Positions 53,715-57,428 of a stretch of DNA of 64,000 nucleotides are shown piece after piece (the stretch's first letter is position 1; every line of letters begins with the position of its first letter). The DNA is from Escherichia phage EC.P1. Position numbers and translations under genes: made by a program. The notes beneath the pieces are model-generated. The model had not been told where the DNA came from and made no database searches. It saw only the letters and a program-made list of their open reading frames with translations. The DNA is taken from the sequence record PQ657772.1; one strand, given 5' to 3'.

Positions 53715-54017
53715 TTACATGCTCGGTTCGTATTCAACATAACATCTTGAACCACGAGCCTTTTCCTCCCAGCATTCTTGGTAAACTAGTTGACCAATTG
53801 ATACTGGATCTCTTGATAACCCATTACGAACTTCACCAGTACTGGTTTTATAAGTAAATGAGCATTTATTTTCATTACATTGACCTAATCCTATTACAGT
53901 CGCTGTATTGTAATGAATATTATAACGTTTAGTGTTCTCATGATATGAACTGAACCACAGAACACCTATACCTAATAGCGTTGTGCAAATAAGACTCTTG
54001 ATATGTGTTGAAATCAT
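53715..54017 (-). CDS. small secreted or membrane-anchored Cys-rich protein
   Basis: 100 aa; N-terminal hydrophobic segment; 4-nt overlap with upstream gene. Confidence 0.45.
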   Translation of the reverse strand: MISTHIKSLICTTLLGIGVLWFSSYHENTKRYNIHYNTATVIGLGQCNENKCSFTYKTSTGEVRNGLSRDPVSIGQLVYQECWEEKARGSRCYVEYEPSM

Positions 54018-54334
54018 AGTGCATTAAATCCATTAGTTAAGTAAGTTTCAATATTAACTTTCCCTACTGGATTACTACTATGTACATAGTATTTAAATGG
54101 TTCTTTAATATTATGCTCAAACATATAATCAATTAGAAATTTGGCAAAAGTGTATCCAGTTTTCTCATCTGTACTCAAGTCACCCAAGTCATGGTCAAAT
54201 GAGACAAATGCTGGAATTCCATTTTTGATTACGTATTCACATGCACTTTCGTAGTCACGACACAATACCATCTCTTGGTCAGGATAATATTTTTGATAAT
54301 CACGAATATCATCCAAGAACATTGAGTACGACAT
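54014..54334 (-). CDS. hypothetical protein with conserved SFDHDLG motif
   Basis: 106-aa ORF. Confidence 0.5.
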   Translation of the reverse strand: MSYSMFLDDIRDYQKYYPDQEMVLCRDYESACEYVIKNGIPAFVSFDHDLGDLSTDEKTGYTFAKFLIDYMFEHNIKEPFKYYVHSSNPVGKVNIETYLTNGFNAL

Positions 54335-54343
54335 TTTAAACTC

Positions 54344-54895
54344 CTATAGATAGCTGATTAGTAAGTTTTCTTTTTGTACAAGATACTCTAATTCTTGTTT
54401 CGCAGTTCCGATGAAGTTCTGTGTCATAAGATTATTATATCCTGCTTCTCGATTTTGTCCCTTCGAATAACGAGAGATGTGACATAAATTTACACCAGCC
54501 ACCTCTGCACTAGCATGTTTGCCATATGCATAATTATCACGAAGTTTTTTAAGTTCAGCATAAGTCATTTCATAACTATAGCTATGTGAGTGACCCTCTG
54601 GAAACAATTCAAGTGATTTTAATGGAGACAGGCGACTTTTGTCAATGATATAGTTCATTTCTTCTTGAACTTCACGTTGTAACGCATCTTCTAATGACTT
54701 ATCAGTACTTTCAACTGTTCCACCACATGCACCCAACAATCCATCCCAACGCACTTGTAGGAGTACTAAGTTAACCACTGGAATATCATTTAGTTCATAA
54801 CCAGAGTATGGGGTACATTCTTTTGCATAAAAGAAACAGAATACAAAATTTGCACGTTTCCCCAGTTGTCCCAGTGGTACTTCAGCTTTACTCAT
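54344..54895 (-). CDS. Nudix-fold protein, Nudt16-like
   Basis: 183 aa; VLLQVRWDGLLGACGGTVESTDKSLEDALQREVQEE and FIGTAKQEL resemble eukaryotic NUDT16 as recalled from memory; 4-nt overlap with Sir2 gene. Confidence 0.5.
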   Translation of the reverse strand: MSKAEVPLGQLGKRANFVFCFFYAKECTPYSGYELNDIPVVNLVLLQVRWDGLLGACGGTVESTDKSLEDALQREVQEEMNYIIDKSRLSPLKSLELFPEGHSHSYSYEMTYAELKKLRDNYAYGKHASAEVAGVNLCHISRYSKGQNREAGYNNLMTQNFIGTAKQELEYLVQKENLLISYL

Positions 54896-55644
54896 CGCAT
54901 TCGTTCCTTAATTATAGTTTCAACCTGTGGAATTGCTTTCGTCGCAGGTTTGATGACCTTCTCATTAAAAAGAAAATCATTATCATTTTTTCGGATGTTA
55001 ACATTTACACTATAGCATGGAAGTGCACCAGCTAGTCTGGACCATACCAGTACTGTATCACTACTTCCAATAACTACAACTGTATCATTTTCTGTGAGAC
55101 TTTTCAACACTTCATTTCGTTCTTCATAAATGGGGAGACGTACCCCATCAACGTAGCGATGATACTCACCAATCATCACTACATTTGGTTTTGCAAAAAC
55201 ATCAGCTTTAGGGATATATGGTTCATAACCACAATTAATGACATTGTAATCATCGGTATTAATAGAAAAGTTCTCAATTACTTCACATAAATTGCCGTGT
55301 AGTTTGAGTTCGGTTCCACCAATTCTAGTATATAGATCATCCATATTAGAAGTCATGTGTAAAAAACAATCACCATACAAATCTTCTAATGATTTAATAA
55401 AGTAATGCATTTCATTAGGATGACATTCACCTAATTTTACACGCAATGTATTATAAAATGAATGAACTACATGATACTTAGAACTAAGTCGTGCAATGTT
55501 ACAAACATCATTAATTTTGAAATTGTCCCACAACCCATCATCAAAGCGGAATGGTTCCATCCCGCTCTCAACTGAAAGACCTGCCCCTGAAATTATAAGT
55601 AATCTTTTGTTCCCAGCATTTTGTATAAATTTATCTGATATCAC
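54892..55644 (-). CDS. Sir2-family (sirtuin) NAD-dependent protein
   Basis: 250 aa; GAGLSVESGMEPFR NAD-binding motif and catalytic-type LHG; no obvious zinc-ribbon Cys pairs. Confidence 0.8.
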   Translation of the reverse strand: MISDKFIQNAGNKRLLIISGAGLSVESGMEPFRFDDGLWDNFKINDVCNIARLSSKYHVVHSFYNTLRVKLGECHPNEMHYFIKSLEDLYGDCFLHMTSNMDDLYTRIGGTELKLHGNLCEVIENFSINTDDYNVINCGYEPYIPKADVFAKPNVVMIGEYHRYVDGVRLPIYEERNEVLKSLTENDTVVVIGSSDTVLVWSRLAGALPCYSVNVNIRKNDNDFLFNEKVIKPATKAIPQVETIIKERMR

Positions 55645-55653
55645 ATTTACTCC

Positions 55654-55845
55654 TTATATAAAAAGTATCAAGTTTAATACTAAAAATACAATGATAGCAA
55701 TATGATAGACATACATCCACTTATTGTGTCCATGTTTATTACCATTCCTGAATTCTCGGTATAAACATTTAGTGTGATTGTATAACACCACACAAATAAA
55801 CACAACTATGAAACAAAAAATCCACTCGTAAACTATGTATGCCAT
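55654..55845 (-). CDS. small membrane protein
   Basis: 63 aa, two hydrophobic helices. Confidence 0.4.
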   Translation of the reverse strand: MAYIVYEWIFCFIVVFICVVLYNHTKCLYREFRNGNKHGHNKWMYVYHIAIIVFLVLNLILFI

Positions 55846-55876
55846 CAGATATACTCTCTCTTTATAATTATTATTC

Positions 55877-56470
55877 TCAGTATTTCAAAATATCAAACTC
55901 TGGACTAACACTTGTTACATTATCACTGACAATTTTGAAAATAGACTCAACACGTTCATGTAACTGAACATTGGTTTCTTCTTGAACTTCAATATACGCT
56001 GACATGGATGCAATTGCATGATACGTCCCGCTTCCGACAGCAGTAATTTGTGTTTTAGGTTGCAGTACTGAAAAGTCTTCTTGAACTTCATAAATCGTAT
56101 GATTATGAAGAATAATGAACTGACCACCACCAACGTCTTGTGATGCATCACGAGCACCCCATTCATCTTTAAACATTTGACGAATGATAGGAATAACTTT
56201 CAGTACTAGATACTGTGAAAAGGTTTCCCCTGCAACTTGTTCTGGTAGAGTTAGGTTGTAATTCAACAACTGTCCCATGCGGAACGAGGTAGTATACCCC
56301 AACGCCATTACTTCTTTAGTGCGAGAAAGACCATCCTCATTGAGTTTAATGAACTCTTTCTCAAATACTTTAGGCTCAGTTTGAACTGCTTTAGTGAAAC
56401 CATTGCTTCCTAATTTATCACCAGCGATGAAGGAAGATGTGCCATTTGTGTGAGCGATAATACAAGTCAT
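55877..56470 (-). CDS. HslV-like (proteasome beta-type) peptidase
   Basis: ORF 55877..56539 trimmed to MTCIIAH... start (GGAG RBS); N-terminal Thr after Met, FIAGDK and ITAVGSGTYHA resemble HslV. Confidence 0.7.
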   Translation of the reverse strand: MTCIIAHTNGTSSFIAGDKLGSNGFTKAVQTEPKVFEKEFIKLNEDGLSRTKEVMALGYTTSFRMGQLLNYNLTLPEQVAGETFSQYLVLKVIPIIRQMFKDEWGARDASQDVGGGQFIILHNHTIYEVQEDFSVLQPKTQITAVGSGTYHAIASMSAYIEVQEETNVQLHERVESIFKIVSDNVTSVSPEFDILKY

Positions 56471-56727
56471 GAAATAACTCCTTGTGCAAAAAGGGCCGTA
56501 TACAACCAGTATATCAACAACCCTAGTGTAAGTAAACATGCTCCATAAGAAATTGATAGAACATAGTAAATTCCTGCTTCTAACTTGGATGAAAATTTGT
56601 GTGTACTGGAATCCATAAAACCACGTTTGTAGTCTTTATAGATGAAACATGTTAAAACTAATGTAATGCAATATACAATAGTTGTTGCATAAAAAACAAG
56701 AGATGTTAAGTTTTGTAAATTTGTCAT
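56467..56727 (-). CDS. small membrane protein
   Basis: 86 aa, hydrophobic helices; stop overlaps HslV-like start. Confidence 0.45.
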   Translation of the reverse strand: MTNLQNLTSLVFYATTIVYCITLVLTCFIYKDYKRGFMDSSTHKFSSKLEAGIYYVLSISYGACLLTLGLLIYWLYTALFAQGVIS

Positions 56728-56819
56728 AGTTTATACACTCCTAGTGTATGTGAACTTATAACAAAGGATGTACCACTTTATCATCCTCTTATTATAATAT
56801 TATTATTTTGTATCTAATA

Positions 56820-57428
56820 CTAATGAATGATACTACCTAATTCGAGCAACTGATCTGGTGTAAGTCTCACAACTTCATTACCACGAACCTTACTAACCTC
56901 CACTAACAATTCTGGAGGAATACCATTCGCTGCATATAACGCAAATAGAACACCAACCTTAGTTGATAGCTGTTCAGCAAAAATAGTCATTTGGCGAACT
57001 GATATGTATGTGTCATCACTATTTCGTGCTTTACTTTCGATTGACACATTATGTAGACCTAGAATTGAGTCCTTCATCATGTATCTGTTTTCTATATTAG
57101 CACTAAAGAATGCGATAGTGCAAGAAGAATTACAATATCTTTCAACAATAATTGTTAAATTGTTATCATTGACAAAATTTCCTAGTACCACTCCCGCATC
57201 AAAATCACCACCAGGTGACGTAATGATGATAGTGTCAAATGGGTGTGTTTCTCTAAAAACCATCAAACGGTTTACAGTATTTTCAGTTAAAGTTGAAATG
57301 AACTGAACTGTCTGTTTAGATTCATCATATCTAATGATACTTTTTCTTTCAACACCTGCACTTGCAGGAAAGTTAATTAAGAAAATAATAATAATAGATT
57401 GGATGATTTCTTTACATAATCGTACCAC
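56820..57428 (-). CDS. secreted ClpP-fold (serine-peptidase-like) protein
   Basis: 202 aa; N-terminal signal-like segment; TSPGGDFDAGVVLGNF resembles the ClpP SPGG loop; later Ser and His candidates. Confidence 0.45.
   Translation of the reverse strand: MVRLCKEIIQSIIIIFLINFPASAGVERKSIIRYDESKQTVQFISTLTENTVNRLMVFRETHPFDTIIITSPGGDFDAGVVLGNFVNDNNLTIIVERYCNSSCTIAFFSANIENRYMMKDSILGLHNVSIESKARNSDDTYISVRQMTIFAEQLSTKVGVLFALYAANGIPPELLVEVSKVRGNEVVRLTPDQLLELGSIIH

Follow-up and report, generated by a model that had tools for sequence, protein, structure and literature searches.

Escherichia phage EC.P1 (sequence record PQ657772.1) carries, within the 64,000-nucleotide stretch of DNA analysed here (the window), a run of eight minus-strand genes at positions 53715-57428 that includes genes for a sirtuin, a Nudix hydrolase and an HslV-like peptidase. 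The best explanation of this interval as a whole, to which a probability of roughly 55% is given, is that it makes up two-thirds, at the 5′ end, of a sigma-70-driven transcription unit of early type running from a promoter at 57592-57565 to near position 51834, in which a nicotinamide adenine dinucleotide (NAD)-dependent RNA-end-processing core lies beside an independent, variable stretch of genes. The anatomy of the unit, namely one probable sigma-70 transcript, a conserved core of five genes, variable gene content ahead of the sirtuin gene and intact active sites, is very probable. The chemistry proposed for the core is tentative. An earlier reading of the letters alone (the original prediction) had instead taken all eight genes as one module in which proteolysis is joined to NAD chemistry.

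The genes of the unit and the sites that border it are as follows, in the direction of transcription:

57685..57710, minus strand: intrinsic-terminator-like hairpin, AAAAAGGAGCC-ATAA-GGCTCCTTTTT, read from the sequence
57565..57592, minus strand: sigma-70-type promoter with an extended -10 element, TAGACA-16-TGaTATAAT (11 of 12 matches, plus the TG)
56820..57428, minus strand: gene A, 202-residue exported ClpP/NfeD-fold-like protein, just upstream of the variable stretch (weak profile matches)
56467..56727, minus strand: gene B, 86-residue protein with two hydrophobic segments (hydropathy)
55877..56470, minus strand: gene C, 197-residue orphan peptidase of the HslV/proteasome-beta type with an N-terminal threonine, in the variable stretch (PHROG match, fold and active site)
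55654..55845, minus strand: gene D, 63-residue protein with two hydrophobic segments (hydropathy)
54892..55644, minus strand: gene E, 250-residue sirtuin of a distinct phage clade, first core gene (PF02146 at 1.3e-19)
54344..54895, minus strand: gene F, 183-residue NUDT16-like Nudix hydrolase, core gene (PF22327 at 1.4e-18)
54014..54334, minus strand: gene G, 106-residue cREC (cyclic-phosphate-processing receiver) domain protein, core gene (PF20274 at 1.9e-23)
53715..54017, minus strand: gene H, 100-residue exported protein with four invariant cysteines, GQC-x4-C ... CW ... C (alignment from nine phages)
52214..53653, minus strand: gene I, 479-residue PIN-PhoH protein (PhoH2-type RNase/helicase), core gene outside the interval (PhoH 8.6e-45, PIN_4 4.5e-20)
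51950..52147, minus strand: gene J, 65-residue basic protein, conserved downstream of PIN-PhoH (tblastn)
51834..51855, minus strand: terminator-like hairpin (9-bp stem, then a run of T) at which the unit probably ends (sequence)

The conserved core consists of the genes for the sirtuin, the NUDT16-like Nudix hydrolase, the cREC protein, the exported cysteine-rich protein H and PIN-PhoH. Gene order was compared by tblastn of the window proteins against related loci, together with record annotations and metagenomic contigs. At least five jumbo-phage genera share the order Sir2, Nudix, cREC, H, PIN-PhoH. It is found in Asteriusvirus (121Q, JNE01), Alcyoneusvirus (RaK2), Mimasvirus (CBB, GAP32) and Eneladusvirus (fHe-Yen9-04), as well as in Erwinia phage Hallingskeid and in contigs L011, L012 and L017-19. 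Amino-acid identity of the five proteins is 38-71% in CBB and Hallingskeid (tblastn) and 21-77% in the metagenomic contigs, and the overall span runs from about 21% (H in L011) to 96%; identity values for the full set cover all loci but RaK2 and fHe-Yen9-04, for which the order is taken from annotation. PIN-PhoH, whose membership of the unit the original prediction missed, is the most conserved and invariably linked member, with 70-96% identity and the same position in all relatives. In addition, Nudix and cREC are fused into one protein in CBB, fHe-Yen9-04 and L011, and fusion in three lineages is strong evidence for a functional link between these two domains.

The gene content upstream of the sirtuin gene is variable. 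In EC.P1, the peptidase gene C lies between the genes for the small membrane proteins B and D, with gene A just upstream. Most relatives carry NMNAT and NAMPT genes upstream of Sir2, many (RaK2 is not one of them) also carry an Acb1-like (PF23474) 2H gene there, and small membrane genes come and go. A tblastn search of the window gave no match to NMNAT or NAMPT, nor to the 2H/Acb1-like proteins of L011 and L012; Asteriusvirus was likewise not among the best NAMPT matches and was absent from the list of 2H matches.

The HslV-like gene follows its own distribution. It is found near the core in Asteriusvirus, L011, L012 and the 7t3/L017-19 type, and is absent from RaK2, CBB/GAP32, fHe-Yen9-04 and Hallingskeid, all of which keep the Sir2 core. 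In JNE01, B and C are separated by an inserted reverse-strand gene. When IMG/VR was scanned with the HslV-like alignment, 341 loci were returned, and the best 80 of these were inspected for 10 kb on each side; 76 have no Sir2, Nudix, cREC, PhoH or A gene in that range and have heterogeneous neighbours, while the four with any core gene all come from the jumbo clade. In T5-like phages (e.g., rutana and S124), Sir2 and the HslV-like gene are 10-11 kb apart, with Sir2 at 62450-63082 and the HslV-like gene at 73337-73900 in rutana. In Vibrio phage R16F, Salmonella phage SE24 and Xanthomonas phage XacN1, the HslV-like gene is located among nucleotide-metabolism genes and Sir2 is not nearby. The idea that the eight genes make up one module is thus unsupported, as there are core-bearing relatives without the HslV-like gene and comparison with relatives finds the peptidase genes scattered. 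These genes are most likely independent of the core and are positional neighbours of it in this phage lineage.

All eight open reading frames of the original prediction are present on the minus strand at the coordinates given above, and the three overlapping stop/start junctions that it listed (56467-56470, 54892-54895 and 54014-54017) are true ATGA overlaps. However, the tight coupling that was read from them does not rise above the background of the array. The entire 64-kb window is a single co-directional array of about 115 genes with a median gap of 16 nucleotides, in which 4-bp overlaps occur at 20 of 114 junctions, and tight junctions were accordingly ruled out as the sign of a special operon.

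The extended -10 promoter that had been placed upstream at about 57565 was found at 57592-57565, inside a 286-nucleotide gap that is the second largest among the window's 114 junctions. Just ahead of it, the hairpin at 57685-57710 closes the upstream unit, which contains a deoxycytidine monophosphate deaminase gene and a gene for an 88-residue protein. Phage 121Q has a sigma-70-like promoter and a similar hairpin upstream of its homologue of gene A. The next terminator-like site on the minus strand after the promoter is the one at 51834-51855, and transcription therefore probably continues through PIN-PhoH and the 65-residue gene J to this point. The interval originally delimited is thus probably cut short at its 3′ end. 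The two longer spacers inside the unit, at 56728-56819 (between A and B) and 53654-53714 (between H and PIN-PhoH), each contain a short inverted repeat close to Shine-Dalgarno-like sequences; its core is GGATG/CATCC or GAGTAC/GTACTC. Such repeats may form processing or translational-control hairpins.

The Sir2-like and Nudt16-like assignments of the original prediction are both borne out, and with them the NAD/ADP-ribose theme that it drew from this pair. Beyond its PF02146 match, the sirtuin has CobB as its nearest solved relative (2e-21). The motifs GAGLS, TSNMD, HG and GSSD run across the jumbo-phage clade, and residues G20, G22, S24, N100, D102, H116, G117, G193 and S194 are invariant in eight phage homologues; in the clade alignment, which includes CBB, RaK2 and Yen9-04, the NAD-binding motifs and the catalytic histidine are kept. 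The four-cysteine zinc-binding module is absent, as the region contains only C120 and C138, neither of which is conserved in relatives. In RaK2, the sirtuin (locus L014, 7224-7961) reads GNGLS instead of GAGLS, and the conserved FR...GLW segment is missing from it. From its sequence, the RaK2 enzyme may be catalytically impaired though the gene order is kept.

The Nudix protein scores 67.8 bits against PF22327 (curated cutoff 27) and 2.4e-7 against NUDIX. It matches human NUDT16 at 9e-12, with the box GGxVExxDxSLEDALxREVxEE aligned and its REVQEE intact against the RELREE of NUDT16. Homology to human NUDT16 and Xenopus X29 extends over the full length, and the box is nearly identical in all of them (GGxV[DE]xxD[RK]SLED[GA]LxRE[LV]xEE); unlike these enzymes, the present protein is phage-encoded and belongs to a family that is fused to cREC in relatives. 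The 106-residue protein known to the original prediction by its SFDHDLG sequence is indeed encoded, but its identity as a cREC domain had been missed. It scores 83.4 bits against PF20274 (curated cutoff 27), and it has receiver-type acidic residues, with both the LDD and the SFDHD motifs present in its translation.

Protein H had been described as secreted and rich in cysteine, and it does combine a signal-like N-terminus with four invariant cysteines. It is always encoded between cREC and PIN-PhoH, across at least five jumbo-phage genera, and its start overlaps or abuts the end of the cREC gene in most phages checked. The family is tiny and clade-specific, with 21 clusters among 1.84 billion representative proteins.

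Part of this combination was described computationally in 2022, contrary to the view that it matches no described system. A sirtuin-centred, predicted RNA-repair neighbourhood has been reported in a form termed configuration 1, the Serratia phage BF type (Iyer, Burroughs, Anantharaman & Aravind 2022, Viruses 14:1977, section 3.7.3, Fig. 5f; PMC9503650). It joins a sirtuin of a distinct clade, without an adjacent Macro gene, to Nudix, cREC (sometimes fused), a PIN endoRNase and a 2H phosphoesterase. In rV5-like and T5-like phages, which are unrelated, this clade of sirtuins again has cREC and RNA-end enzymes linked to it (PMC9503650). The Sir2, Nudix, cREC and PIN part of the present cluster is the part so described (section 3.7.3). 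The cREC domain itself was defined in a 2021 paper on jumbo phages, where it was proposed to process molecules of the cyclic ADP-ribose (cADPr) type (PMC7824862). A further related system is NARP2 (Nampt plus Nmnat), which experimentally overcomes NAD-depleting defences (bioRxiv 10.1101/2024.02.11.579819).

The EC.P1 unit resembles configuration 1 in its distinct-clade sirtuin, in the lack of a Macro gene within the unit, in the adjacency of F and G, and in the PIN_4 and PhoH domains encoded two genes downstream of cREC. Phage BF belongs to the same jumbo lineage, fHe-Yen9-04 shows a homologous order, and the NAMPT and Acb1-like genes of BF stand at matching positions; fHe-Yen9-04 and BF are presumably members of one genus. 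Unlike configuration 1, EC.P1 has no 2H/Acb1-like gene, its Nudix and cREC are encoded separately, and an HslV-like peptidase and two small membrane genes occupy the place where relatives hold 2H and NAD-salvage genes. NARP2 adjoins the same sirtuin core upstream in RaK2, CBB, fHe-Yen9-04, Hallingskeid, L011, L012 and the 7t3 type, and its genes are absent from the present window (tblastn). The text of the 2022 paper makes no mention of the exported protein H (PMC9503650). The cluster thus belongs to a published, computationally defined type, from which it departs in lineage-specific ways by lacking the 2H gene and carrying the HslV-like insert. Both the genome and its annotation are public, and the proposed new system of eight genes does not hold. 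No experimental study of a phage sirtuin, of cREC or of the phage HslV-like family was found in the literature, nor anything relevant on the Asteriusvirus Sir2.

Following Iyer et al. 2022, the core is tentatively read as an RNA-repair pathway, a mechanism that falls somewhat short of an even chance. In this scheme, the sirtuin would transfer the ADP-ribosyl group from NAD+ in the manner of KptA/Tpt1, and would thereby remove 2′-phosphates from RNAs cut by metal-independent host nucleases. The cREC protein would open cyclic phosphates, either at RNA ends (2′,3′>p) or in ADP-ribose 1″-2″>p. The NUDT16-like Nudix hydrolase would split the pyrophosphate bond of ADP-ribose, free or conjugated, to give adenosine monophosphate, and PIN-PhoH would unwind, trim and remodel the RNA.

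KptA/Tpt1 enzymes remove 2′-phosphates from RNA in an NAD-dependent reaction that produces ADP-ribose 1″-2″ cyclic phosphate. The proposed likeness lies in the use of NAD+ as ADP-ribosyl donor, in the cyclic-phosphate by-product, and in clean-up by a phosphoesterase and a Nudix enzyme. Unlike KptA/Tpt1, the candidate enzyme here has a sirtuin fold rather than the ADP-ribosyltransferase (ART) fold, and the unit contains no RNA ligase.

Several observations weigh against the reading of the unit as an RNA-end-processing core beside independent genes. The literature yielded no biochemical or genetic test for any of the module's genes, and for this reason the RNA-repair mechanism is drawn from gene context. 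EC.P1 lacks the 2H gene of the published configuration as well as a ligase, the nearest solved relative of the sirtuin is a protein deacylase, and the exported protein H, which is strictly embedded in what would be a cytoplasmic RNA pathway, is left unaccounted for. Moreover, four different jumbo-clade arrangements (Asteriusvirus, L012, L011 and the 7t3/L017-19 type) place the HslV-like gene next to Sir2 or close to it, and a functional tie between the two that is restricted to this clade may therefore exist. Finally, the core of relatives directly follows NARP2-type NAD-salvage and Acb1-like genes, which a role in counter-defence or NAD-metabolite turnover fits equally well.

This last role is the main rival, although it is unlikely overall. 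Sir2, Nudix and cREC would then act on soluble NAD-derived molecules instead of RNA ends, and would break down either immune signals built on ADP-ribose or by-products of the host's NADases, alongside NARP2 and the Acb1-like cyclic-nucleotide phosphodiesterase. The position of NMNAT, NAMPT and the Acb1-like gene directly upstream of Sir2 in most relatives speaks for it, as do the measured effect of NARP2 on NAD-depleting defences (bioRxiv 10.1101/2024.02.11.579819) and the proposed action of cREC on cADPr-type molecules (PMC7824862). Yet the core is kept in EC.P1 with neither NARP2 nor the Acb1-like gene, its most conserved and invariably linked member (PIN-PhoH) is an RNA enzyme, and a sirtuin consumes NAD+ and yields ADP-ribose derivatives rather than removing them. 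A PADLOC scan of nine proteins gave no meaningful match and no defence-type Sir2, the sirtuin matching none of the defence-Sir2 models; the PADLOC library covers the defence proteins of hosts and not the anti-defence proteins of phages. It is improbable, in turn, that all eight genes act as one unit that couples NAD/ADP-ribose chemistry to targeted proteolysis for host takeover or counter-defence, as originally proposed. The single probable transcript, the recurrent proximity of the HslV-like gene to Sir2 in the four arrangements just named and the presence of both genes in T5-like genomes agree with such a unit. Against it stand the core-bearing relatives without the HslV-like gene, the 76 of 80 IMG/VR loci that have neither a core gene nor A within 10 kb, the 10 kb that separate the two genes in T5-likes, and the insertion in JNE01. 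In addition, B and D are restricted to one genus, A is an exported protein whereas C to G are cytoplasmic ones, and the tight junctions are a genome-wide norm. A narrower form of this idea, less probable still, is that Asteriusvirus and the 7t3-type jumbo phages recruited the HslV/proteasome-type peptidase as a partner of the sirtuin-Nudix-cREC-PIN/PhoH unit. The recruited peptidase might destroy a host nuclease or defence effector whose RNA damage the unit repairs, or might be gated by sirtuin-catalysed ADP-ribosylation or deacylation.

The two remaining alternatives concern the core itself. That a CobB-like sirtuin resets the acylation of host or phage proteins, with the Nudix enzyme clearing O-acyl-ADP-ribose and the other genes as unrelated neighbours, receives little credence. 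CobB deacylases are the best solved homologues, the catalytic histidine and NAD-binding motifs are intact, and O-acetyl-ADP-ribose is hydrolysed by other Nudix enzymes. However, the entire clade has lost the zinc-binding module by which the substrate cleft for acyl-lysine is shaped, the Nudix protein is of the NUDT16 type and not of the ADPRase or NUDT5/9 type, and both the Nudix-cREC fusions and the strict linkage to PIN-PhoH would go unexplained. Least probable of all, at a very low likelihood, is that every adjacency, including those of the core, is merely gene order inherited within one phage clade. All phages that bear the order do fall within the RaK2-like jumbo lineage, and genomes of this lineage are collinear for the most part, but the core order survives repeated remodelling of its flanks, Nudix and cREC are fused in three lineages, and linkage of the sirtuin clade to cREC and to RNA-end enzymes extends to the unrelated rV5-like and T5-like phages (PMC9503650).

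If the chemistry predicted for the RNA-end-processing core is correct, a sirtuin would do the job of Tpt1/KptA in NAD-dependent RNA-end healing, and large phages would use the core to survive host defences that cut RNA. The Asteriusvirus version is a convenient minimal cluster, as it contains no 2H and no NAD-salvage genes and its E. coli hosts are easy to handle. Protein H is of interest as an exported protein that is nevertheless always embedded in the core. Recruitment of the peptidase, if true, would be the first viral link between a proteasome-family peptidase and NAD/ADP-ribose chemistry.

The HslV-like assignment of protein C is well founded. Its longest open reading frame starts at 56539, but the correct start is 56470, as the original prediction had implied, because the N-terminus MTC is invariant in 33 homologues. 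In the alignment of these 33 sequences, M1, T2, C3, D18, K34, G146 and G148 are invariant; after removal of the methionine, this corresponds to a catalytic set of Thr1, Asp17 and Lys33 together with a GSG motif. The phage family also carries the motif TSFRMGQ. The only sequence-profile match of C is to phrog_1040 (2.6e-22). It has no Pfam match at E<=1, the Pfam Proteasome family included, and phmmer places PDB HslV at E=0.16. Structure is more informative: the AlphaFold2 (AF2) model, calculated as a monomer, has a predicted local distance difference test (pLDDT) score of 93 and shows the alpha-beta-beta-alpha N-terminal nucleophile (Ntn) fold, that is, a confident proteasome-beta fold. Foldseek matches the model to HslV at 1.7e-10 and to BPH with TM scores of 0.70-0.78, and every one of the top 50 PDB matches is an HslV, a BPH or a 20S beta subunit. 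Many relatives of C are found in BFVD, and they are phage-borne.

Protein C thus resembles HslV (ClpQ) and BPH in its fold, in the N-terminal threonine exposed by methionine removal, and in Asp17, Lys33 and the GSG motif. It differs from them in its sequence identity of only 13-19%, in the absence of a Pfam Proteasome match and in an invariant cysteine right after Thr1. The original prediction found no HslU-type unfoldase, and none was found in the 64-kb window here. The only AAA-like open reading frame of the window, which encodes a 442-residue ATPase at 1321-2649, gives just a weak P-loop match and was ruled out as HslU. No HslU-like protein is encoded within 5 kb of the HslV-like gene in the 80 IMG/VR loci either. 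In lacking a nearby HslU, C is like BPH and Anbu, which have no known ATPase partner. Most likely, C would act as a self-compartmentalising peptidase, either by itself or together with the HslU of the host. The 80 loci were searched for a conserved partner of the HslV-like gene and none was found; outside the jumbo clade, the commonest neighbours are an HD-hydrolase-like gene (11 loci, the top count) and a NAD-dependent DNA ligase gene (10 loci). With 341 IMG/VR loci, an intact active site and no unfoldase partner seen, the phage HslV-like family merits interest in its own right.

For protein A, the secreted character that had been proposed agrees with its signal-peptide-like N-terminus, while the ClpP fold appears only in weak, sub-threshold matches. 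Pfam CLP_protease (PF00574) is matched at E=0.003 with 17.9 bits, under the curated cutoff of 20.2, and a profile of A finds only ClpP and NfeD chains in the PDB, but at E=0.002-1. Protein A matches phrog_26024, annotated 'protease', at 8e-70. Its invariant motifs are TSxGG, AG, C-x-S-x-C and G-x-H-N, of which the last two align to the serine and histidine of ClpP in a weak profile alignment. An AF2 model built from nine close homologues has a pLDDT of 51 and is unusable. Homologues were found by tblastn in 121Q, JNE01, Hallingskeid, L011 and L012, and RaK2 has a 'protease' of the same size annotated at the same position. A would be a periplasmic ClpP-fold-like protein, and its gene, like that of C, is most plausibly an early gene independent of the core. 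A true ClpP (PF00574, 1.3e-41) is encoded 3 kb upstream of it at 60365-61060; the counterpart in 121Q is annotated as a head maturation protease. Genes for a MazG-like protein, a calcineurin-like phosphoesterase and an ATP-dependent DNA ligase are located further upstream (59575-63957).

Proteins B and D are small membrane proteins as proposed, with two hydrophobic segments each. By tblastn, B was found in 121Q, JNE01 and L016 only, i.e., in Asteriusvirus-type phages, and D in 121Q and L016 only, which makes it Asteriusvirus-specific.

The source phage is an Asteriusvirus-like jumbo coliphage. Over the interval and its flanking DNA, it shares 99.7% identity with the jumbo coliphages Ecwhy_1 and fEgEco12 of GenBank, and about 78% with 121Q and PBECO4, which are Asteriusvirus phages. 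The records of these phages already annotate the genes in question as a protease (ClpP-like), a protease (ClpYQ-like, HslV family), Sir2-like, nudix hydrolase, membrane protein and PhoH-like. Rfam and tRNA scans of the whole window gave no match.

Further genes with NAD/ADP-ribose or tRNA-repair themes are scattered along the array. They encode a protein with a weak, below-cutoff match to the Macro domain (E=5.7e-4), a second Nudix protein, a CCA-adding enzyme and a DUF4326 protein, at 16983-17459, 18279-18692, 18799-19914 and 43468-43794. A 323-residue protein encoded downstream, at 49069-50040, contains a WGR domain (PF05406, 1.3e-10) at residues 256-322 only, and its N-terminal 250 residues are unassigned and have no solved sequence relative. 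The 2022 paper does not mention WGR in its text (PMC9503650). WGR domains occur in PARP-type enzymes, and this gene may for that reason also be part of the NAD/ADP-ribose theme.

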